Assembly: GCA_022703625.1 (NCBI GenBank)
Contig: JAKLDH010000001.1
Location: 12,157-76,156 of the forward strand
Length of the DNA stretch: 64,000 nucleotides
DNA from: Cyanobacteriota bacterium
GTDB taxonomy: Bacteria > Cyanobacteriota > Vampirovibrionia > Gastranaerophilales > UBA9971
Reading direction: 5' to 3'
Part shown: piece after piece, positions 3,529-63,701 of the stretch
Layout of the letters: every line of letters begins with the position of its first letter
Numbering within the stretch: position 1 is the stretch's first letter
Program-made: the position numbers and the translations under genes
The notes under the pieces: model-generated
The model's database searches: none
The model's input: the letters and a program-made list of their open reading frames with translations, nothing else
What the model was told of the DNA's origin: nothing

Positions 3529-3604
3529 GCCTTTTCATTTACCGAATAAATATATACGCTCCAAATGGATACAGGCTTTGTTTCTTATGTCTATAAAAAC
3601 AAAA

Positions 3605-3677
3605 TGGAGGTGAGGAGACTCGAACTCCTGACATCTTACGTGCAAGGCAAGCGCTCTACCAACTGAGCTACACCCCC
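3605..3677 (-). tRNA. tRNA-Ala (anticodon UGC)
   Basis: Hand-folded 73-nt cloverleaf: GGGGGTG acceptor with the G3:U70 Ala identity pair, anticodon loop CTTGCAC, T-loop TTCGAGT. CCA is not encoded. Confidence 0.93.
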
Positions 3678-3721
3678 ATGTTCAGGTTTATATTGGGTTT
3701 TTCTTGTATTCAAGGTTTATT

Positions 3722-3795
<74 letters not shown>

Positions 3796-12727: not shown

Positions 12728-13978
12728 ATGGTAAATAAATCCAGAAGAGTTGTTGTTACCGGGATGGGAGTCGTAACTCCGTTTGGAGTCGGTGTGGACT
12801 TGTTCTGGGAAAATCTTGTCAAGGGAAACAGCGGAGTTAAAACGATTACTCAAGTTGACTTGAGTAAGCATGACGTAAAAATTGGCGGTGAAGTAACAGA
12901 TTTTGAGCCTGGTAAATATCTTGATCAAAAAGAAGCGAAAAGAATGGATAGATTTACTCAGCTTGCAATGGTTGCCGCTCAGGAAGCTATGCGTGATTCA
13001 GGGCTTGATATGGAAAAAACTGATCCGACCAGAGTTGGAGTTATTGTAGGCAGCGCTGCCGGCGGTATGGCTACAATAGAAAAAAACCATGAAGCTATTA
13101 TGCAAAAAGGACCTTCAAAATGCAGTCCTTTTACAGTGCCGATGATGATCGTTGATATGGCTGCCGGAAGAATTTCCATAATGATTAACGCTAAAGGACC
13201 CAATAAAGCGATTGTAACGGCTTGCGCAACAGCTTCTCATTGTTTGGGAGACGCTTTTAGAACAATTTCATACGGAGATGCGGATGTCGTTTTTGCCGGA
13301 GGTTGTGAAGCTCCTCTTACTACTCTTGCAATGGCAGGTTTTACCAGCGCAAGAACTTTATCAAGACGAAATGATGAGCCTGAAAAAGCAAGCAGACCTT
13401 TTGATAAAGATAGAGATGGTTTTATTATGGCTGAAGGCGCAGGAATTTTTGTTCTGGAAGAACTAGAGCATGCTCTTGCAAGAGGAGCAAAAATTTATGG
13501 CGAATTTGTCGGCTATGGCGCAAATGCCGACGCAAATGATATAGTCGCTCCATGCGCTGACGGAGAAGGCGCTGCAAGAGCCATGAGGCTTGCTTTAAAT
13601 GATGCTGGACTTGAACCTCAAAAAGTTAAATATATAAATGCTCATGGAACAAGCACTTCGTTAGGAGATATTGCAGAAACAACAGCAATTAAAACTGTTT
13701 TTGGAGATTATGCTAAAAACGGACTTCTTGTAAGTTCAACAAAAAGCATGACCGGACATACATTAGGCGCTGCCGGAGCAATAGAAGCCATTGCTTGTTT
13801 AAAAGCGATGGAAACTAATATAGTTCCACCTACAATAAATCTGGATAATCCTGATGAACATTGCGATCTTGATTATGTGCCGCATACAGCAAGAAAAGTT
13901 GAAAATCTTGACGTTGTAATGTCAAATTCATTTGGATTTGGAGGACATAACGCTTCTTTAGTGTTTAAAAAATATTAA
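12728..13978 (+). CDS. fabF: 3-oxoacyl-ACP synthase II
   Basis: Active-site 'ACATASH', 'NAHGTST' and 'GHTLGAAG' motifs. Confidence 0.93.
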
Positions 13979-13997
13979 AATTTATAAATTCTTAATT

Positions 13998-14038
13998 AGC
14001 GGACGATTCGCCAAAGGCGAATCGTCCGCTAATTTTTT
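13998..14038 (+). terminator. rho-independent terminator after fabF
   Basis: Perfect 15-bp stem AGCGGACGATTCGCC/GGCGAATCGTCCGCT with an AAA loop, followed by AATTTTTT. Confidence 0.75.
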
Positions 14039-14092
14039 ACGCAATCCGCATCCACTTATAGTGATCTGTAAAAGGTTTTTGGAACTTAATAA

Positions 14093-14456
14093 TACCAAGT
14101 TGCAATCAATGTATACCAATCGAAATAAGTTTTCGTTAATTTATTAAAAAGCTGATACCTACAGCCCGCGCCGCCTTGCGGGCGGCGCGGACTGAGTAAG
14201 GATATAGCGAGTGTTTTGTAGCGCAAGCGGGAGTTTTAACTCATTCATGCTGCCGAAGGCAAAACACCCGTAAATTAAAGATTTACAAAAACCATCTTTT
14301 TTATTTAACGGTTTTTTAAATTAATTGGTATAGTATTAAATCTCCCTCCCCCTGCCCCCGCCCCAAGGGCGGGGAAGAAGAGTTGATAAGGGTTTTGCCG
14401 GTTACGCCGGCAAAACCCTTATCAAAAAATAATACTCTTTTGATTGCAACTTGGTA
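14093..14456 (+). mobile_element. family-A MITE (TIR TACCAAGTTGCAATCAA) carrying a nested family-B MITE
   Basis: Terminal inverted repeats at 14093-14109 and 14440-14456, flanked by TAA (14090-92) and TAA (14457-59). Collinear with the 53006 copy except for the B insertion. Confidence 0.8.
14114..14330 (+). mobile_element. family-B MITE (TIR TACCAAT...ATTGGTA), long subtype, nested in A
   Basis: Flanked by TA (14112-13) and TA (14331-32), while the paralogous empty site at 53025-26 has a single TA. Carries hairpins CAGCCCGCGCCGCC/GGCGGCGCGG and GTGTTTTG.../CAAAACAC, the latter with a ~35-nt loop insertion. Confidence 0.85.
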
Positions 14457-14460
14457 TAAG

Positions 14461-14511
14461 GATACAGCGGCTGGCTTCGCCAGCCGCTGCGACAAATATA
14501 AAATTATTTAT
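14461..14511 (-). repeat. family-F fragment (GGCTGGCTTCGCCAGCC hairpin plus AAATATAAAATTATTTAT tail)
   Basis: Matches the reversed F core seen at 60550-60604. Its tail overlaps the sepF stop codon (14508-14510). Confidence 0.6.
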
Positions 14512-15927: not shown

Positions 15928-16062
15928 TATATGAATTTAAACAAGGCTTAACAAAGCTTAACATATATATTACAAGCGTGAAAATTTAATTTTACCAGGG
16001 TTAATTTTCAGATACGCCTTATTGTACGCAAGGAAGTAGTAATAGATAAGGAGAATCTTATT

Positions 16063-16914
16063 ATGAGTATTATTATCAACACAAACGTAAGCTCAATTTT
16101 AGTTCAAAGAAGTTTATCAACATCAACCCACAACATTCAGTCATCATTGGAAAAACTTTCAACAGGTTATAGAATCAACAAAGCCGCTGATGATGCGGCA
16201 GGTTTAAGCATATCCGAAAGCTTGAAAGCGCAGGGGCGTGGCGCTCAAGTAGCTTCAAACAACGCTCAAACAGGTATTAACCTTTTGCAAACAGCAGAAG
16301 GCGACCTTGCGATCATTCAGGAAAACTTGCAAAGAATCAGAGATCTTGCTATTCAGGCGGCAAACGGAACAAACGGTTCTGCTGAAAGAACAGCAATCCA
16401 GGCTGAAGTCCAACAGCGTGTTACAGAAATCGACAGACTGGCAGAGTCATCCGCATTTAACGGAATAAAACTTTTAGACGGATCAACAACTTCTGATCTT
16501 AAAATTCAAATCGGCGCAAACAGTAATCCGTCATTAAACTCAATCAGCCTTACAGATGGAGAAAATCCGCTGGAAAGCGCAACAGCTTCTTCTCTTGGAA
16601 TGACAACAGCTTTAGCTACAGCGTTTGGAACTACAGGCGCCGCGGCGAGTTTCATTTCTCAGATTGATGATGCTATTTCAAACGTGTCTTCAAGAAGATC
16701 AACAATAGGTTCTATCCAAAATAGATTAGAATCCGCAATTCAGAGTTTAAATATTCAGTATGAAAACATGTCAGCGTCTGAATCCAGAATCAGGGACGTA
16801 GATGTTGCTGACGAAGCCGCAAACCTCACCAAAAATCAAATATTGCAACAGGCTTCCGCTTCTCTGTTAGCTCAGGCTAACCAGGCGCCGTCGATTGCTC
16901 TAAGTTTAATATAA
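16063..16914 (+). CDS. flagellin (short, 283 aa)
   Basis: Flagellin N-domain 'MSIIINTNVSS...YRINKAADDAAGLSISE' and C-domain 'ILQQASASLLAQANQAPSIALSLI'. The central region is only about 60 aa. Confidence 0.95.
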   Translation: MSIIINTNVSSILVQRSLSTSTHNIQSSLEKLSTGYRINKAADDAAGLSISESLKAQGRGAQVASNNAQTGINLLQTAEGDLAIIQENLQRIRDLAIQAANGTNGSAERTAIQAEVQQRVTEIDRLAESSAFNGIKLLDGSTTSDLKIQIGANSNPSLNSISLTDGENPLESATASSLGMTTALATAFGTTGAAASFISQIDDAISNVSSRRSTIGSIQNRLESAIQSLNIQYENMSASESRIRDVDVADEAANLTKNQILQQASASLLAQANQAPSIALSLI

Positions 16915-16933
16915 AAAATCAATCACCCTGGTT

Positions 16934-16966
16934 GAGAGGCTTATCGGAGATAAGTCTCTCCTATTT
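16934..16966 (+). terminator. hairpin terminator after flagellin 1
   Basis: GAGAGGCTTATC-GGA-GATAAGTCTCTC (12-bp stem, one G.U) followed by CTATTTAAAAAAA. The T-tract is weak. Confidence 0.5.
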
Positions 16967-16991
16967 AAAAAAACAGTCCTTATTTCCCCCC

Positions 16992-17018
16992 TAAAGTTTC
17001 AAGGATTGAGTTCATAAA
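16992..17018 (+). promoter_or_regulatory. possible sigma28 (FliA)-type promoter for flagellin 2
   Basis: TAAAGTTT (16992-16999) matches the 8-nt -35 consensus exactly. The -10 region TTCATAAA (17011-17018) is only a partial match to GCCGATAA. Confidence 0.3.
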
Positions 17019-17041
17019 AAAAAGATAAGGAGAATCTTATT

Positions 17042-17893
17042 ATGAGTATCATTATTAACACGAACGTAAGCTCAATTTTAGTTCAGAGAAGTTTATCGAC
17101 TTCAACACACAACATTCAGTCATCATTGGAAAAACTTTCAACCGGTTATCGAATCAACAAAGCGGCTGATGACGCGGCAGGTTTAAGTATTTCCGAAAGC
17201 TTGAAAGCTCAGGCTCGTGGCTCTCAGGTAGCGGCAGCAAACGCTCAAACAGGCATTAACCTTTTGCAAACAGCAGAAGGCGACCTTGCGATCATTCAGG
17301 AAAACTTGCAAAGAATCAGAGATCTTGCTATTCAAGCGGCAAACGGAACAAACGGTTCTGCTGAAAGAACGGCAATTCAATCTGAAGTTCAACAGCGCGT
17401 TACTGAAATTGACAGGCTGGCAGATTCATCCGCATTTAACGGGATAAAACTGTTAGACGGTTCAGCAACTTCTGATCTTAAAATTCAGATCGGCGCAAAC
17501 AGTAATCCGTCATTGAACTCAATCAGCATTACTTCCGGAGAAAACCCTCTGGAAAGCGCAAGCGCATCTTCTCTTGGAATGACTACAGCTTTGTCTACAG
17601 CGTTTGGAACTGCAGGATCAGCGGCGAGTTTCATTACTCAAATTGATGATGCGATTTCTAACGTATCTTCAAGAAGATCAACAATAGGTTCTATTCAAAA
17701 CAGATTAGAATCCGCTATTCAGAGTTTAAATATTCAGTATGAAAACATGTCAGCGTCTGAATCCAGAATCAGGGACGTTGATGTTGCTGACGAAGCCGCA
17801 AAACTCACCAAAAATCAAATATTGCAACAGGCTTCCGCCTCTCTGTTAGCTCAGGCTAACCAGGCGCCGTCAATTGCCCTAAGTTTGATATAA
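17042..17893 (+). CDS. flagellin (short, 283 aa), tandem paralog
   Basis: Same length as flagellin 1, with about 20 substitutions clustered in the central region. The leader AGATAAGGAGAATCTTATT preceding the ATG is identical. Confidence 0.95.
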   Translation: MSIIINTNVSSILVQRSLSTSTHNIQSSLEKLSTGYRINKAADDAAGLSISESLKAQARGSQVAAANAQTGINLLQTAEGDLAIIQENLQRIRDLAIQAANGTNGSAERTAIQSEVQQRVTEIDRLADSSAFNGIKLLDGSATSDLKIQIGANSNPSLNSISITSGENPLESASASSLGMTTALSTAFGTAGSAASFITQIDDAISNVSSRRSTIGSIQNRLESAIQSLNIQYENMSASESRIRDVDVADEAAKLTKNQILQQASASLLAQANQAPSIALSLI

Positions 17894-17908
17894 AAATCAA
17901 GGCTTTTT

Positions 17909-19746: not shown

Positions 19747-21069
19747 ATGAAAAAAGTAGCGTTACAAACCCTGGGATGCAGAGCCAATCAGCTTGAATCC
19801 TCAATAATAATCGATAAATTCTTGAAATTAGGCTGGGAAGTCGTTAATTTTAACAGTTTTGCTGATATTTACATAATAAATACATGCACTGTAACCGGAA
19901 AAAGCGACAATTCTTCTTTGTCTTTTGTTAGAAAAGCTAAAAAGATTAATCCTGCGGCAAAAATTATAATTGCAGGTTGCTATCCTCAGGTCGCCGCCGA
20001 AGAAATAGCCAAAATTCAGGACATTGATCTTGTTATAGGCAACGCAGAAAAACTTAACCTGCCTGAATTATTAGAAAAACATGATGTTTTTAATGAGAAC
20101 TCAGGCAAAATTTATGTTTCAGACATAATGAAAGAAGAAAAATTCAGGGACGAAACGGTTTTATCTGCTTCAGGAAGAGTAAGAGCAAATATTAAAATAC
20201 AAGATGGCTGCAATTACAGATGTTCATACTGCATAATCCCCTATGCAAGAGGAAAAAGCAGAAGCAAAGAGCTTTACGGAACAATTGAACAGATTAAACA
20301 AATTACAGACAAAGGTTTTAAAGAAATTGTCCTGTCCGGAATTCATCTGGGACAATGGGGACTTGATTTAAATCCGCAAAAGACGTTGTTAACGCTTTTA
20401 GAAGAAATTGAAAAAATATCGGAACTTAAAAGATTCAGGTTAAGTTCTTTAGACCCCATGGAACTTAATGAAGAAATGATAACCTTTCTTGCAAATTCCG
20501 AAAAGTTTTGCAGGCATTTGCATATTTCTCTTCAAAGCGGCAATAATGAAGTTTTAAAAAGGATGAACAGGCGTTATACCGTTGAATATTACTCTGAATT
20601 AATAAATTCCCTTGTTGAAAAAATCCCTTTTATAAATATAGGCAGTGATATAATAGTAGGATTTCCCGGAGAAACAGACGCTAATTTTGAAAACACTTAT
20701 GAAAACCTGAAAAAACTTTCTATTGGTTATATACATATATTTCCGCATTCCAAAAGAAAAAACACTCCTGCCGCCATAATGCGGGATCAGGTAGACGAAA
20801 AAGTTAAAAAATATAGAGCCGCAAGACTAAAAGCGCTTGCAGCGGAGAAAAGTCTTGAATTCAGAGAAAAACTTGTGGGTAATGAGTTTGAAATTATTGT
20901 GGAAAATACTCGTGATAAAAATACCGGACTTTTAAAAGGAATGACCGATAATTTTATTTCCACGCTGATTGCAGGAGATAATGAGTTAAAAAATCAGCTT
21001 GTAAGAGTAAAAATAACCTCTACTGATGAAAAAACTACTTTTGGTCAAAGCAATTCAAGCCTATATTAA
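19747..21069 (+). CDS. mtaB: MiaB-like radical-SAM methylthiotransferase (MtaB type)
   Basis: N-terminal UPF0004 'TLGCRANQLES...NTCTVT', radical-SAM 'CNYRCSYCIIP' and a C-terminal TRAM-like region. Confidence 0.85.
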   Translation: MKKVALQTLGCRANQLESSIIIDKFLKLGWEVVNFNSFADIYIINTCTVTGKSDNSSLSFVRKAKKINPAAKIIIAGCYPQVAAEEIAKIQDIDLVIGNAEKLNLPELLEKHDVFNENSGKIYVSDIMKEEKFRDETVLSASGRVRANIKIQDGCNYRCSYCIIPYARGKSRSKELYGTIEQIKQITDKGFKEIVLSGIHLGQWGLDLNPQKTLLTLLEEIEKISELKRFRLSSLDPMELNEEMITFLANSEKFCRHLHISLQSGNNEVLKRMNRRYTVEYYSELINSLVEKIPFINIGSDIIVGFPGETDANFENTYENLKKLSIGYIHIFPHSKRKNTPAAIMRDQVDEKVKKYRAARLKALAAEKSLEFREKLVGNEFEIIVENTRDKNTGLLKGMTDNFISTLIAGDNELKNQLVRVKITSTDEKTTFGQSNSSLY

Positions 21070-21153
21070 ACTAAAAAAGTTTTCGTTAATTTGCTAAAGA
21101 GCTGATATCTATAGCCCGCAAGCTAAGACTTTACAAAAATCGCCTTTTTTATT
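21070..21153 (+). repeat. family-B element, internally deleted, left end degenerate
   Basis: AAGTTTTCGTTAATTTGCTAAAGAGCTGATATCTATAGCCCGCA joined directly to GACTTTACAAAAATCGCCTTTTTTATTTA. Both GC hairpins are missing. Begins right after the mtaB stop (21067-69). Confidence 0.6.
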
Positions 21154-21155
21154 TA

Positions 21156-21487
21156 TACCAATTTAAATAAGTTTTCGTTAATTGGTAAAAAAGCTAATAT
21201 TTACAGCCCGCGCCGCCCTGCGGGCGGCACGGGCTAGGTAAGGGTATAGCAGGTGTTTTGCCTTCGGCAAAACACCTGCTAATTAATACCAAGTTGCAAT
21301 CAAACAATTACTATTTCTTTGATGTGGTTTTCGCCGGCAAAGCCGGCGAAAACCACATCAAATCTTCTCCCCCTCCCTTCAGGGAGGGGTTAGGGGGAGG
21401 GTGATTTCATACTACATTGATTGCAACTTGGTATAAGGATTTATAAAAATCATCTTTTTTATTTAACGGTTTTTAAATTGATTAGCA
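21156..21487 (+). mobile_element. family-B MITE interrupted by a family-A MITE
   Basis: TACCAAT at 21156 preceded by TA. The right end is the degenerate ATTAGCA (21481-87) followed by TA. Body matches B1/B4/B8 on both sides of the A insertion. Confidence 0.75.
21287..21433 (+). mobile_element. family-A MITE nested in B (different hairpin cargo)
   Basis: TIRs TACCAAGTTGCAATCAA / TTGATTGCAACTTGGTA flanked by TAA (21284-86) and TAA (21434-36). Cargo is the hairpins GATGTGGTTTTCGCCGGC/GCCGGCGAAAACCACATC and CTCCCCCTCCC/GGGAGGGG. Confidence 0.8.
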
Positions 21488-38970: not shown

Positions 38971-39170
38971 CAATCATTTAAATACGAGGGGGTTCGGGGG
39001 CTTGCCCCTGATGGATATGTCAGTTTGTCATGTTCGTTTTTCTTTCTTTTGCTTCGTTTTCTTTCTTTTTGCGTTCAAAAAGAAAGAAAATGAAGAAACG
39101 GTAAGTATTGTAGGCTGAAAAGATGCTGAAACAAAGCCTGTCCTGAACTTGTTTCAGGATTCAGCATGAC
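38971..39170 (+). repeat. family-C element, short isoform (copy 1)
   Basis: Head ...GAGGGGGTTCGGGGGCTTGCCCCTGATGG, core TTTCTTTTTGCGTTCAAAAAGAAAGAAAATGAAGAAACGGTAAG, tail ...TTCAGCATGAC. Aligns with 43621, 46481 and the reverse complement of 48200. Confidence 0.7.
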
Positions 39171-40115: not shown

Positions 40116-40160
40116 GAACTGTTTTTATACTAAACGACATATTAATGATTTTTATTGTAT

Positions 40161-40406: not shown

Positions 40407-40534
40407 TATGCGCCTCTCTTTATTTAATTAAATAGATATCTTATTATATTACCTTAAATTTGTTATATCAAATATAAAAAAATGCGGGTTCATCTTATTT
40501 TTTCGTGAAATTCAATGCCCATAAGCATGGAGCT

Positions 40535-40670
40535 GTCATTGCGAGGAAGAATTTTTCCATATAATTGTGAATAAAAGCGGAAATCTTTATGAAAAATTCT
40601 GACGCGGCAATCTTTCCAGTCTTTCCGGGCTAAAAATAGATTCCCGCGTCGCTTCGCTCCTCGGAATGAC
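40535..40670. repeat. family-D element
   Basis: Arms GTCATTGCGAGGAAG (40535-) and GCTCCTCGGAATGAC (-40670), with inner arms GACGCGGCAATCT / AGATTCCCGCGTC. Translated by the spurious ORF 40490..40672. Confidence 0.65.
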
Positions 40671-40685
40671 AATTTCTAGTTTATG

Positions 40686-42616: not shown

Positions 42617-42690
42617 TTAATATTTCGGGTAATTTAATTTATCACTAAATAATTTATACTTAAAAGAAAATTATACCAATTTAGTTTTAT

Positions 42691-42778
42691 AATAAAAGTC
42701 GTTAATATGTTTACATTTAACGAGTTTTCCTCATTACCCGCAAGAAATTCATGTTAATTAGTTTTGTCGTTTAGTATA
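42691..42778 (+). repeat. conserved 85-nt 5'-element, copy 2 (ends 3 nt before the phosphoribosyltransferase ATG)
   Basis: Full-length alignment with 18161-18247. A TATACCAAT family-B-type terminus lies just upstream at 42672-42680. Confidence 0.7.
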
Positions 42779-42781
42779 ATT

Positions 42782-43438
42782 ATGAAAATAGAAAAATACG
42801 AGTCTAAAGAAGCTGCCGGTGAAATTCTTGCAGAAAAACTTTTTGAATTAAAGTTAGAAAAACCCTATATAATGGCTGTTTTAAGAGGCGGGGTTCAAGT
42901 TGCGCAAGTAATTGCGGATAAATTTAAACTTCCTGTACATCCTTTGATAGTAAAAAAACTTCCTTCTCCTGAAAATCCAGAATATGGATTTGGAGCTGTT
43001 ACAGAAGACGGGACTTTAGTTCTTAATGAAAATGCTGTTCTTTCTTTGAAACTTAGCCGGGATATCATAGAAAAAATTGCTAATACTATTGTTCTTGAAA
43101 TTCAACGCAGAAAAAATATATTTGGCGAGCTTGATAATAAAAAAATAAGCGAATCAGACGTAATTATAGTTGATGATGGCATTGCAACCGGTTATTCTTT
43201 AATTGCCGCTATAAATACAGTTAAAAAACGGCGTCCTAAATCTATTACTATAGCTGTTCCGGTAAGTTCATTAAGCGCTTATTCAGTTATAAAAAAACTT
43301 GCTGACAATATTGTTTGTCCTCTTATAAGCAGTGATTATTTTTTTACGGTCGCCGCATATTATAAAACATGGAGTGATTTATCAGAAGAAAGTCTTAAAT
43401 TTATTATTGAAGACTACAAAAATAAATATTCTGATTAA
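42782..43438 (+). CDS. phosphoribosyltransferase-family protein
   Basis: PRPP-binding loop 'VIIVDDGIATGYS'. The ATG at 42782 (MKIEKYESKEAAG) is preferred over the TTG at 42764. Confidence 0.8.
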   Translation: MKIEKYESKEAAGEILAEKLFELKLEKPYIMAVLRGGVQVAQVIADKFKLPVHPLIVKKLPSPENPEYGFGAVTEDGTLVLNENAVLSLKLSRDIIEKIANTIVLEIQRRKNIFGELDNKKISESDVIIVDDGIATGYSLIAAINTVKKRRPKSITIAVPVSSLSAYSVIKKLADNIVCPLISSDYFFTVAAYYKTWSDLSEESLKFIIEDYKNKYSD

Positions 43439-43606
43439 CTTGAATTGCTAAATAAATAATTTTATATTTGGCGTAGCGGCTGGCTTCGCCAGCCGCTACG
43501 CCGTTTTAAGGGCATGCGGCTCGCAGGCTTTGCCTGCGAGCCGCATAAAAAATTAAAATAAAATTTCAATCTATTTCAGCGTTTCGACTAATTAGCAATT
43601 CGAGTT
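43437..43606 (+). mobile_element. family-F MITE (TIR AACTTGAATTGCTAA)
   Basis: Left TIR 43437-43451, right TIR TTAGCAATTCGAGTT 43592-43606 (15/16 match). Cargo hairpins GCGGCTGGCTTCGCCAGCCGC and GCGGCTCGCAGGC/GCCTGCGAGCCGC. The PRT stop codon (43436-38) overlaps the left end. Confidence 0.75.
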
Positions 43607-43620
43607 GATTAAAATAATAA

Positions 43621-44757: not shown

Positions 44758-44769
44758 ACTTTATTAATT

Positions 44770-44939
44770 TACTTGAGTTTTTAAAAAAATAATTTTATAT
44801 TTGGCGTAGCGGCTGGCTTCGCCAGCCGCTACGCCTTCTTAAGGATATGTGGCTCGCAGGCAAAGCCTGCGAGCCACATAAAAAATTAAAATAAAATTTC
44901 AAGCTATTTCAGCCTTTAGACTAATTCCTAACTCAGGTA
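44770..44939 (+). mobile_element. family-F MITE, second copy (diverged TIRs)
   Basis: Core is almost identical to 43451-43590. Ends are TACTTGAGTTTTTAA and TTCCTAACTCAGGTA. Confidence 0.65.
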
Positions 44940-45030
44940 TATTAATGACTTTTATTAAAATAAACAAATTTTAATTACCGGTTTTTTATTGTAAAATTTT
45001 ATAAAGGGCATGGATTTTTTTAAAACCTCC

Positions 45031-46480: not shown

Positions 46481-46691
46481 AAAAGACAAAAATCAAGCAT
46501 TTGAATACAAGGGGGTTCGGGGGCTTGCCCCTGATGGATTTGTCAGTTTGTCATGTTAGTTTTTTCTTTTCTTTTGGTTCGTTTTCTTTGCTTTTTTTCA
46601 AAAAAGAAAAGAAAATGAACAAACGGTAAGCATTGCATTGCATGCTGGAAAGATGCTGTTGCGAAGCAGTAGGTGCTGTCCGCATTTCGCA
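46481..46691 (+). repeat. family-C element, short isoform (copy 3), left bracket of the methyltransferase cassette
   Basis: AAAAGACAAAAATCAAGCATTTGAATACAAGGGGGTTCGGGGGCTTGCCCCTGATGG... The tail is replaced by an E fragment. Confidence 0.7.
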
Positions 46692-47797: not shown

Positions 47798-47980
47798 TAC
47801 CAATCATTAAAAGAAATCAGCAAATGAAAAAGATGATTTTTGTAAGTCCTTAATTTGCGGGTGTTTTGCCGAAGGCAAAACACCCGCTATACCCTTACTC
47901 AGCCCGCGCCGCTCGCAGGGCGGCGCGGGCTATAAATATCAGCTTTTTAACCAATTAATGAAAATTTATTTGGATTGGTA
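47798..47980 (-). mobile_element. family-B MITE, short subtype
   Basis: TACCAAT...ATTGGTA flanked by TA (47796-97) and TA (47981-82). Hairpins GCGGGTGTTTTGCC/GGCAAAACACCCGC and CAGCCCGCGCCGC/GCGGCGCGGGCT. Confidence 0.8.
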
Positions 47981-51449: not shown

Positions 51450-51568
51450 TACCAATCATTAAAAAAAAATCGGCATTTGTAAGTCCTTAATTTGCGGTTG
51501 TTTCGGCTCTGCCGAAACAACCGCAATACCCTTGCTCAGCCCGCTCCGCCCTGCGGGCGGAGCGGGCT
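51450..51568 (-). mobile_element. family-B MITE, truncated; shared hairpin between convergent aroA and ispE
   Basis: TA-TACCAAT left end at 51448. Hairpins GCGGTTGTTTCGGC/GCCGAAACAACCGC and CAGCCCGCTCCGCC/GGCGGAGCGGGCT. The element stops at the ispE stop codon (51567-69), which lies in the last hairpin arm. Confidence 0.7.
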
Positions 51569-53005: not shown

Positions 53006-53148
53006 TACCAAGTTGCAATCAATGTAGTATTAAATCTCCCTCCCCCTGCCCCCTCCCCAAGGGAGGGGAAGAAGAGTAGATAAGGTTTTTGCCGGCGTAG
53101 CCGGCAAAAACCTTATCAAAAAAAAACTCTTTTGATTGTAAATTGGTA
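53006..53148 (+). mobile_element. family-A MITE, uninterrupted reference copy (right TIR degenerate)
   Basis: TACCAAGTTGCAATCAA...TTGATTGTAAATTGGTA. Same cargo as 14093. Contains the unoccupied TA (53025-26) where B sits in the 14093 copy. Preceded by TAA and by a B-type stub TACCAATCAAAA. Confidence 0.75.
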
Positions 53149-53152
53149 GTAG

Positions 53153-53193
53153 ATAGATTGCCGCGTCGGGGCTTCGCCCCTCCTCGCAATGAC
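53153..53193. repeat. family-D half element
   Basis: ATAGATTGCCGCGTCGGGGCTTCGCCCCTCCTCGCAATGAC, followed by an F-type terminus-like ACCTGAGTAGTTGCGG. Confidence 0.5.
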
Positions 53194-53245
53194 ACCTGAG
53201 TAGTTGCGGTATAAGTGATTAAAAAGCCGAGGAAGGGTATATCGC

Positions 53246-58330: not shown

Positions 58331-58528
58331 TACCAAGTTGCAATCAAAGCCTAATCGTCATTGCGAGGCATAAAATCAGGAATATAAGTTATTAATGTAT
58401 TTTCGAAGCAATCTTCCTGCTTGGAATGATTGAAAGAAGATTGCTTCGCAAGTTAATTGCCAAAGTATACCCCTAACTTTAAGGCTCGCAATGACGGGAA
58501 AAAGTTATATATTGATTGCAACTTAGTA
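58331..58528 (+). mobile_element. family-A shell carrying family-D cargo
   Basis: TIRs TACCAAGTTGCAATCAA / TTGATTGCAACTTAGTA flanked by TTA (58328-30) and TTA (58529-31). Interior is CGTCATTGCGAGG ... GCTCGCAATGACG arms. Starts 4 nt after the TPR stop. Confidence 0.75.
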
Positions 58529-59291: not shown

Positions 59292-59363
59292 GGAAGAGTA
59301 TTTAATGCAGGTTTTTGCCGGCGCAGCCGGCAAAAACCTTATCAAAAAATAGCGCTCTTTGCC
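59292..59363 (+). repeat. family-A right-half fragment
   Basis: GGAAGAGTATTTAATGCAGGTTTTTGCCGGCGCAGCCGGCAAAAACCTTATCAAAAAATAGCGCTCTTTGCC parallels 53070-53135. Confidence 0.55.
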
Positions 59364-59365
59364 TA

Positions 59366-59465
59366 TACTAATCAATTTTAAAAACTGTTAAATAAAAAGA
59401 TGATTTTTGTAAAGCCTTAATTAGCAGCTTTTTAACCAATTAACGAAAATTTATTTGGATTGGTA
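59366..59465 (-). mobile_element. family-B MITE, internally deleted (no GC hairpins)
   Basis: TACTAAT...ATTGGTA flanked by TA (59364-65) and TA (59466-67). 100 bp; both ends match B, and the middle is missing. Confidence 0.7.
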
Positions 59466-60411: not shown

Positions 60412-60497
60412 TACCAATTTTAATAAGTTTTCGTTAAGCGGTTAAAAAGCTGCTACTTACAGCACATGCCGCCCTGAGCGCAACCCGTTACCCTGTT
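60412..60497 (+). repeat. family-B element, truncated and degenerate
   Basis: TA-TACCAATTTTAATAAGTTTTCGTTAAGCGGTTAAAAAGCTGCTACTTACAGC..., then loss of similarity. Confidence 0.55.
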
Positions 60498-60604
60498 AAA
60501 ACTTTTTTATGAGGCTCGCAGGCAAAGCCTGCGAGCCTCATGGTTTTTCGAAGGCGTAGCGGCTGGCGAAGCCAGCCGCTACGCCAAATATAAAATTATT
60601 TATT
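60498..60604 (-). repeat. family-F core, reversed and truncated, host of the next B insertion
   Basis: TTTTTTATGAGGCTCGCAGGCAAAGCCTGCGAGCCTCATGG...GGCGTAGCGGCTGGCGAAGCCAGCCGCTACGCCAAATATAAAATTATTTAT. Its matching F terminus TTAGCAACTCAGGTT resumes at 60826-60840, after B8. Confidence 0.6.
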
Positions 60605-60606
60605 TA

Positions 60607-60822
60607 TACCAATCTAAATAAATTTTCGTTAATTGATTAAAAAGCTGATATTTACAGCCCGCGCCGCGGGCAGGGCGGCGCGGGCAGGGTAAGGGTATAG
60701 CGGATGTTTCGTTGCGCAAGCGGGAGTTTTAACTCATTCATGCTGCGAAGCCGAAACATCCGCTAATTAAGGCTTTACAAAAATCATATTTTTCATTTGC
60801 CGATTTCTTTTAATGATTGGTA
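60607..60822 (+). mobile_element. family-B MITE, long subtype, nested near the end of the F element
   Basis: TACCAAT...ATTGGTA flanked by TA (60605-06) and TA (60823-24). Has the same ~35-nt loop insertion (GCGCAAGCGGGAGTTTTAACTCATTCATGCTG) as B1. Confidence 0.8.
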
Positions 60823-60965
60823 TATTTAGCAACTCAGGTTAATATCATAAAATAATGCACTACTTACATGATAATTAAAGTTAATTCATTTGATATAATA
60901 ATTTGAAAAGTTTATAAAAAAGTAAGTATTAACTTTTGTAACGCGCTTATAATGAGGAACCGTTC

Positions 60966-63492: not shown

Positions 63493-63701
63493 TTTGAGTT
63501 GCTAAAAGTTTTTTCAATCGTCATTCTGAGGGTTTTAACCCGAAGAATCTTGTTGTATACAAGCCATGAGATGTTTCGCTTCGCTCAACATGACGCATTC
63601 ATGCCATGAGATCCTTTGCTTCGCTCAACATGACGCATTCATGCCATGAGATGTTTCGCTTCGCTCAGGATGACAGTTTTGGCTATTTAGCGACTCAAGT
63701 T
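63491..63701 (+). mobile_element. family-F shell carrying family-D hairpins
   Basis: TIRs AATTTGAGTTGCTAA (63491-63505) and TTAGCGACTCAAGTT (63687-63701). The right TIR overlaps the HD-GYP stop codon (63700-02). Confidence 0.65.
63563..63675 (+). repeat. 40-bp tandem repeat (2.8 copies) of a D-type hairpin
   Basis: GCCATGAGATGTTTCGCTTCGCTCAACATGACGCATTCAT at 63563 and 63603 (3 mismatches), and a partial copy at 63643. Confidence 0.8.

Follow-up and report, generated by a model that had tools for sequence, protein, structure and literature searches.

The stretch of 64,000 nucleotides analysed here (below, the window) belongs to an uncultured Candidatus Gastranaerophilales bacterium (Melainabacteria) and carries, along with genes, several families of short repeats. 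The host was recognised by exact protein look-ups, its genes being annotated in NCBI under a MAG of this group (the assembly includes the proteins HSA06186, HSA06192 and HSA06384); none of the loci from the genome scan overlaps it. Among the genes are a tRNA-Ala(TGC)/tRNA-Ile(GAT) pair at 3604-3795, arranged as in rRNA operon spacers and accompanied by no detectable rRNA on either side within the window, and two tandem flagellin genes at 16041-17900, which encode 283 aa each and are ~92% identical (in the metagenome contig L001 one flagellin is called at 255 aa). The repeats of primary interest, families A and B, are both short and contain no ORF of any size. A elements measure about 145 bp (133-147) and in many copies possess perfect 17-nt termini, TACCAAGTTGCAATCAA; B elements are 183 or 216 bp long and begin with TACCAATY, extended by an imperfect repeat to approximately 27 nt. 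Subfamilies of B (216/217 bp at 14114-14330 and 60607-60822; 183 bp at 47798-47980) are told apart by 33-34 nt (TAGCGCAAGCGGGAGTTTTAACTCATTCATGCTG) inserted into the second hairpin at its loop. Hairpin folding is strong in both families (z = -10.0 for A and -7.8 for B), and a role of these hairpins as terminators was rejected after a scan in which terminator-like sites did not exceed chance. Nine copies or fragments of B and five of A were counted in the window (Table 1), where the motif TACCAAKT occurs 14 times against 5.2 +/- 2.3 expected. One more hairpin repeat, GTCATTGCGAGG...CCTCGCAATGAC, is present at 40530-40680, 53155-53197, 58350-58500 and 63557-63676, in the last case as three tandem 40-nt units.

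Table 1. Elements of families A, B and F in the window, ordered by position.
Feature	Position	Strand	Remarks
Divergent F-like element hosting A14 (probable)	13975-14511	.	right half (14466-14511) clearly F, left half divergent
TAA duplication of A14	14090-14092 and 14457-14459
A14, left arm	14093-14113	+	terminus TACCAAGTTGCAATCAA followed by TGTA
B14, inside A14	14114-14330	+	217 bp, TACCAATCG...AATTGGTA; TA duplication at 14112-13 and 14331-32
A14, right arm	14331-14456	+	starts with the second TA, ends in TTGATTGCAACTTGGTA
Degenerate B copy, internally deleted	21061-21155	+	immediately before B21
B21, left part	21156-21286	+	ends in the target TAA (21284-21286)
A21, inside B21	21287-21433	-	147 bp, both 17-nt termini perfect; orientation opposite to that of A14 and A53
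B21, right part	21434-21487	+	opens with the second TAA (21434-21436); right terminus degenerate (ATTGATTAGCA)
Intact F copy, empty site for the B60 insertion	43434-43612	-	second copy at 44767-44945
Intact B copy	47798-47980	-	183 bp, TA/TA flanks
Truncated B copy	51450-51568	-	only right end intact; outer TA
A53, intact A copy	53006-53148	+	paralogous empty site for B14
Element with A-type termini	58331-58528	+	198 bp, same 17-nt termini, unrelated interior, TTA/TTA flanks
A-interior fragment	59293-59360	+	GCCGGC hairpin module, without termini
Internally deleted B copy	59366-59465	-	100 bp, TA/TA flanks; one terminus TACTAAT
B left-end fragment, another copy	60412-60476	+	TA on the outer side
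F element before B60	60490-60606	-	termini AACTTGAATTGCTAA, two GC-rich hairpins
B60	60607-60822	+	216 bp, TA/TA flanks, inside F element
F terminus after B60	60825-60843	-	TTTAGCAACTCAGGTTAAT

The insertion of B into A becomes evident if two A copies are compared. A53 reads ...CAATCAATG-TA-GTATTAAATCTCCC with a single TA and therefore represents the empty site, while A14 reads ...CAATCAATG-TA-TACCAATCG...AATTGGTA-TA-GTATTAAATCTCCC and is otherwise collinear with it. In blastn, positions 1-21 of A53 match 14093-14113 with 100% identity and positions 20-143 match 14331-14456 with 88.9% identity, the overlap of the two matches being exactly the duplicated TA; if the breakpoint is allowed to slide, the empty site is compatible with a 2-bp duplication only. 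A53 itself has a degenerate right terminus and non-matching flanks. The search for paralogues of the empty site was extended to 114 metagenome stretches of the host (~975 kb, 34% GC), which were retrieved with the B left end and hence cover a part of the genome with a bias to B-containing contigs; at least nine intact A copies in this sample match the reconstructed junction without gaps. The original prediction, which placed a B element in an A copy exactly at TA, assumed homology of the two A copies on both sides of the insertion point and assigned TAA/TAA flanks to the interrupted one, is confirmed in all three respects, and the TA is single in intact A copies. With A14 removed in silico its insertion site aligns to the F family, so that on the basis of the alignment this locus is probably a three-level nest, an F-like element being the host of A14 and A14 that of B14. 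In another contig (L176), at 2234-2440, one more B copy directly adjoins an A terminus at CAATG-TA, i.e. at the same site as B14, and the remainder of that A copy is absent on the other side of B; this junction could be a hotspot used again, a deletion, or a co-mobilised flank.

The reciprocal event is found in B21, split by A21 in reverse orientation, with TAA at both junctions. At the corresponding point the intact B60 reads GCTAAT-TAA-GG with a single TAA, and at least 30 intact B copies of the ~975 kb host contigs fit the reconstructed empty junction gap-free, in agreement with the predicted insertion of A into B at TAA. Three further independent A-in-B insertions occupy other positions (L135, L140, and L173), and one A insertion lies within another repeat (L200). 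From these results reciprocal nesting emerges as a general feature of the host genome. Both nested sites are covered by independent assemblies L001 and L002, which reproduce the structures of the window, and therefore an assembly artefact is not their source (identity of contigs L001-L005 to the window is at least 99.8%). Gene order departs in one contig: L004 (3221-3362) leaves the order of the window (compare 38989-39105 and 46512-46653) at a repeat of the D6/D8 family, either because the assembly switched at the repeat or because the locus is rearranged.

For the third nest, B inside F, the outcome is less clear-cut. Elements of the F family are about 180 bp long, have termini AACTTGAATTGCTAA and contain two GC-rich hairpins. 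That B60 interrupts F is supported by six intact F copies, which at the B60 junction read on through into 20-30 nt more of F. However, subtraction of B and one TA from the interrupted element leaves 4 surplus nucleotides within an ATTT run, and the junction is thus not clean: either this F copy is a variant longer by 4 nt, or the duplication comprises 6 bp and is atypical. So the interruption itself holds, as originally proposed, and the junction retains four extra bases.

Flanking sequences were compared in the window and in the host sample. Every intact B end in the window adjoins TA, as had been stated for B copies with at least one intact end, and the 3-bp duplication TTA/TTA ascribed to the element at 58331 is confirmed for 58331-58528. 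A profile search of the ~975 kb collected 56 distinct B copies of full length (183 or 216 bp), 53 of them flanked by TA/TA, mostly in the outer context YTAR (T/C-TA...TA-A/G). Of 33 distinct A pairs in the same contigs, 25 are bordered by the same 3 nt on both sides (TAA in 12 cases, TTA in 9, TGA in 2, TCA and CTA in 1 each), with a chance of about 2% per pair for such identity at the base composition of the host. The duplications of the window copies (TA in B, 3 bp in A) recur on the larger scale.

Affiliation of family A was approached via its terminus, which turned out to be widespread. Reference genomes of many phyla contain the 17-mer TACCAAGTTGCAATCAA, in total in more than 100 stretches, and in about half of these stretches a partner terminus is located 46-170 bp away. 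Perfect 3-bp duplications, always of the TNA type, accompany 45 of the 56 cross-phylum pairs (TAA 20, TTA 10, TCA 10, and TGA 5), and TNA adjoins 95 of 112 exact 17-mer ends. Interiors enclosed by this terminus are unrelated between lineages, and the cyanobacterial copies are MITEs of 77-155 bp with a slightly diverged second end. A-type elements are distributed over at least eight phyla, namely Cyanobacteriota, Acidobacteriota, Synergistota, Bacillota, Spirochaetota, Hydrogenedentota, Desulfobacterota/Thermodesulfobacteriota, and Nitrospirota. Five matches of the 17-mer (Streptococcus, Alkanindiges, Pelobium, Saprospiraceae, and Nealsonbacteria) were discarded as chance, having neither a partner terminus nor a TNA flank. 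MITEs of Nostoc and Brasilonema have the motif GTCATTGCGAG, known also from the hairpin repeat at 40530-40680 and elsewhere in the window, just inside the A-type terminus in common with the window element 58331.

Full-length elements with the A terminus were found in other organisms. In a Hydrogenedentes MAG (L021) A termini 1137 bp apart enclose an HTH ORF and a DDE_3 ORF and are flanked by TCA/TCA; the transposase scores 124 bits with NF033545 (cut-off 100) and also matches PF13358. At E <= 1e-20 this protein has 5,617 homologues, the majority encoded on contigs 1.1-1.5 kb in length, and four of them located on long contigs (L240, L241, L242, and L244) lie between A-type termini with TTA/TTA flanks in each case. 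Distant full-length plasmid relatives terminating in TACCAAT, TACCAAC or TACCAAA are flanked by TGA, TAA, TCA, TGA, TAA, and TAA, and those with TTCMATTTC termini by TTA and TTA, so that TNA is duplicated in 13 of 13 full-length A-type elements and relatives examined. Each full-length A-terminus element found is about 1.1 kb long and encodes an IS630-family HTH + DDE_3 transposase (NF033545, PF13358), the DDE_3 ORF following the HTH ORF in a different frame. The second D-to-E spacing, taken from the orfB alignment of a small sample (L021, L114, L115, L234, and L238 versus L136), comprises 29-31 residues in TNA-type enzymes versus 36 in the TA-type enzyme of the host. At L244 (1406-2642), in an organism other than the host, the A-type IS630 element is of full length and harbours an A-type MITE (2506-2642) within its right end. 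Judging from these sequences, the A terminus is the end of full-length IS630-family elements and not of IS5/Harbinger ones. A search of the literature gave no paper on the A terminus sequence, and the searchable literature, a scope that does not include ISfinder, gave no description of a TNA-duplicating IS630 clade. It may be proposed, tentatively and as a possibility rather than an expectation, that the terminus marks a large undescribed IS630 lineage of more than 5,600 homologues (E <= 1e-20) characterized by TNA duplication, a spacer of 29-31 residues, and a near-invariant 17-nt end (TACCAAGTTGCAATCAA) in at least eight phyla, with unrelated MITEs in each of them.

Family B has other relations. 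Its assignment to the IS630/Tc1-mariner type, proposed from the TA duplications, agrees with TA flanks in 53 of 56 copies, with the YTAR context and with ends of the "TA|TA..." kind; such "TATA" ends are typical of IS630-derived MITEs (PMC4853749). As regards its transposase, B is presumed to be a member of IS630. A search of the ~975 kb for B ends spaced by 0.6-3 kb and for DDE matches returned only an unrelated IS of the host, and no full-length element with B termini was found. This IS, a host-encoded IS630-family element of 1143 bp (L136, 5077-6219; also L164, 558-1700), has termini TACTAAGCGACAT (TACTAA ends) and TA/TA flanks, and its HTH ORF precedes a DDE_3 ORF that is read in another frame, the transposase scoring 140 bits with NF033545; plasmid relatives of it closer than ~30% identity were not detected. 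It was considered as a mobiliser of B and rejected: the termini agree only at TAC-AA, the subterminal sequences are different, and the end is instead shared, over 12 nt, with one more repeat, G. The G repeat (TACTAAACGACAAAACTAATTAAC...GACTTTTATTATAA) is about 92 nt long, TA-flanked and present in ~40 copies in ~1 Mb, and occurs at 40128 and 42685-42776 of the window; B and F also occur nested in it. G is often situated directly upstream of start codons with TATAAT at its inner end, suggestive of an outward promoter. The host IS630 element is adjoined by a CRISPR array (repeat GTTTCAATCCTGATTTTGTTGGAATAGAGGTATAAAT) starting at ~6222 of L136, whose first repeat, ...CAAGTTGCAATCCTG, has 12 nt in common with the A terminus (CAAGTTGCAATC); this match may be a coincidence.

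As predicted, no plausible transposase for A or B resides in the window, where tblastn gave nothing, nor did a cognate transposase for either family turn up in the host contigs (~975 kb); the AT-rich amino-acid bias of the host was absent from the 120 proteins most similar to the A-type enzyme. The search for a DDE ORF bounded by TACCAA termini, recommended in the original prediction, thus succeeded in other organisms (L021, L240-L244) and yielded none in the host sample. The identity of the terminal TACCAA in A and B, regarded there as a puzzle, ceases to be one, because both families are of IS630 type; TACCAA and TACTAA termini recur in this part of IS630 with either duplication length, and the shared end probably reflects common IS630 ancestry rather than one enzyme in common.

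Taken together, we consider it likely that A and B are non-coding derivatives of the IS630 superfamily, moved in trans by two distinct, related transposases of the DDE cut-and-paste kind and nesting in each other within spacers. For B a classical IS630-type enzyme would cut with a 2-bp stagger at TA, preferably in the YTAR context, and for A an enzyme of the sister lineage would generate a 3-bp stagger at TNA. Outside their GC hairpins both elements are AT-rich and would offer TA and TNA sites as targets, and insertions into spacer DNA would be tolerated. The combination of AT-rich targets with the tolerance of spacers would explain why A and B land in each other as well as in F and G.

How long ago this happened is another matter, and here the most serious alternative arises, according to which the nests are fossils, recording old bursts of two families that lost their transposases and are now immobile. 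Such a reading conforms to the missing cognate transposase (window, host contigs, and 120 best homologues), to the many copies truncated or deleted, and to the identity of B copies to their nearest neighbours, which is 92% (maximum 97.3%) and thus implies ~8% divergence, copies in the window being 10-18% apart. No presence/absence difference was seen between the samples either: all-versus-all comparison of metagenome contigs (99.96% identity) revealed no indel of at least 40 bp over ~94 kb. Yet these samples hold essentially one clone, so that the polymorphism test has little power, and the search for transposases covered a part of the genome biased to B-containing contigs. Moreover, many A copies retain perfect 17-nt termini along with perfect duplications, and their nearest-neighbour identity has a median of 96%, reaching 99.3% in the closest pair. 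By these measures A is the younger family and B the older one, and since each has inserted into the other, their periods of activity would have overlapped. The claim that both families moved recently is weakly supported: it stands in a relative sense only, and strain-to-strain polymorphisms were not seen over ~94 kb. On balance the fossil reading seems possible but rather doubtful.

The reading with two enzymes may also be weighed against a single IS630-type transposase that recognises TACCAA and moves both A and B, the duplication varying with the ends or with target choice. The identical terminal hexamer, the abundance of both families in one genome and the existence of full-length relatives with TACCAAT ends make this conceivable. 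However, how many target bases are duplicated is dictated by the way in which transposase and target are arranged in their complex, and this number is steady at 2 bp for B (53/56) and at 3 bp for A (25/33); besides, the termini of A and B diverge from position 7 inward, and full-length elements with TACCAAT ends make TNA rather than TA, so that one common enzyme looks improbable. Even less credit can be given to A as a Tourist-like MITE driven by an IS5/PIF-Harbinger (TWA) enzyme, with B of IS630 type and the common TACCAA resulting from coincidence or convergence, although this was the affiliation suggested originally. A 3-bp duplication is classical for PIF/Harbinger and some IS5 groups, and the flanks TAA, TAA, and TTA of the window copies fit TWA, but TCA and TGA are frequent (15 of the 45 duplications counted across phyla, 3 of the 25 from the host), which makes the duplication TNA, and HTH and DDE_3 proteins of the IS630 family are encoded by the full-length A-terminus elements without exception, no IS5-type ORF being associated with the terminus. 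Finally, one might dispense with transposition and invoke repeat mis-assembly, or else recombination or gene conversion between palindromic repeats of mosaic structure, given that many repeat families are intermixed in the spacers and that the metagenome contig L004 changes context at a repeat. This is hardly credible in view of breakpoints lying exactly at the element termini, precise 2- and 3-bp duplications with dozens of gap-free empty-site paralogues, and identical structures in independent assemblies.

With A and B understood as IS630 derivatives moved by two enzymes, the repeat-rich spacers of the host genome are explained as stacks of IS630-type MITEs, which calls for caution of annotators and assemblers dealing with such regions. 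The nests provide a clean bacterial example of reciprocal MITE insertion; internal empty sites for either family are available by the dozen in copies of the other. If the TNA lineage is indeed real, it would be a natural system for the study of cleavage stagger in enzymes of the Tc1/mariner type; if it is undescribed, comparison with TA relatives could show which part of the transposase spaces the target cuts; and the 17-nt A end would then mark an unusually wide horizontal spread.

Among known systems the closest is the IS630 family itself (NF033545, PF13358), with ~1.1 kb elements, HTH and DDE_3 domains, inverted repeats and T...A targets, all of which recur in the full-length A-terminus elements and in the host IS. 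Its classical TA duplication is also made by B, in the YTAR context, and by the host IS, whereas in the A lineage TNA is duplicated (13 of 13 full-length elements and most MITEs) and the second D and the E lie closer together, with 29-31 residues between them. RUP of Streptococcus pneumoniae and Correia elements of Neisseria are IS630-derived MITEs with TA duplications. B and G are likewise short, non-coding, hairpin-forming, intergenic, abundant, and TA-flanked, with the element itself starting with TA; in contrast, the sequences are unrelated, and several families coexist here and nest reciprocally. MITEs of Thiomargarita are IS630-derived too and have "TATA" ends (PMC4853749). Nezha and Chunjie are MITEs from genera that carry A-type elements as well (Nostoc and Geobacter are among the matches), and identity of A with either of them was rejected, since the direct repeats are ~10 bp in Nezha (PMC6042816) and 9 bp in Chunjie (PMC3184786) against 3 bp in A and 2 bp in B. 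Of the features by which MITEs are recognised, A and B display short length (MITEs being shorter than about 600 bp), lack of coding capacity, inverted termini, and duplications as judged against empty sites, and termini shared with an autonomous element were found for A in other organisms only (L021, L240-L244). The resemblance extends to eukaryotes: plant Stowaway and Tourist MITEs nest in one another, and the TWA family among them is driven by PIF/Harbinger. In plants, too, it is the uninterrupted copies that reveal the empty sites, and the phenomenon does not differ from the one described here, but in the Gastranaerophilales genome both partners are of IS630 type. A 3-bp duplication within the IS630-Tc1-mariner group also has a possible parallel, since Bao et al. 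are said to have reported in 2009 that Zator and the bacterial TP36 transposons make duplications of this length. These elements form a branch of that group and cluster with IS630 (PMC7386202). MITEs as such, those derived from IS630 and nested ones have all been described before; A and B are further families of a known type, and their nests are ordinary mobile-DNA biology and not a new kind of system.
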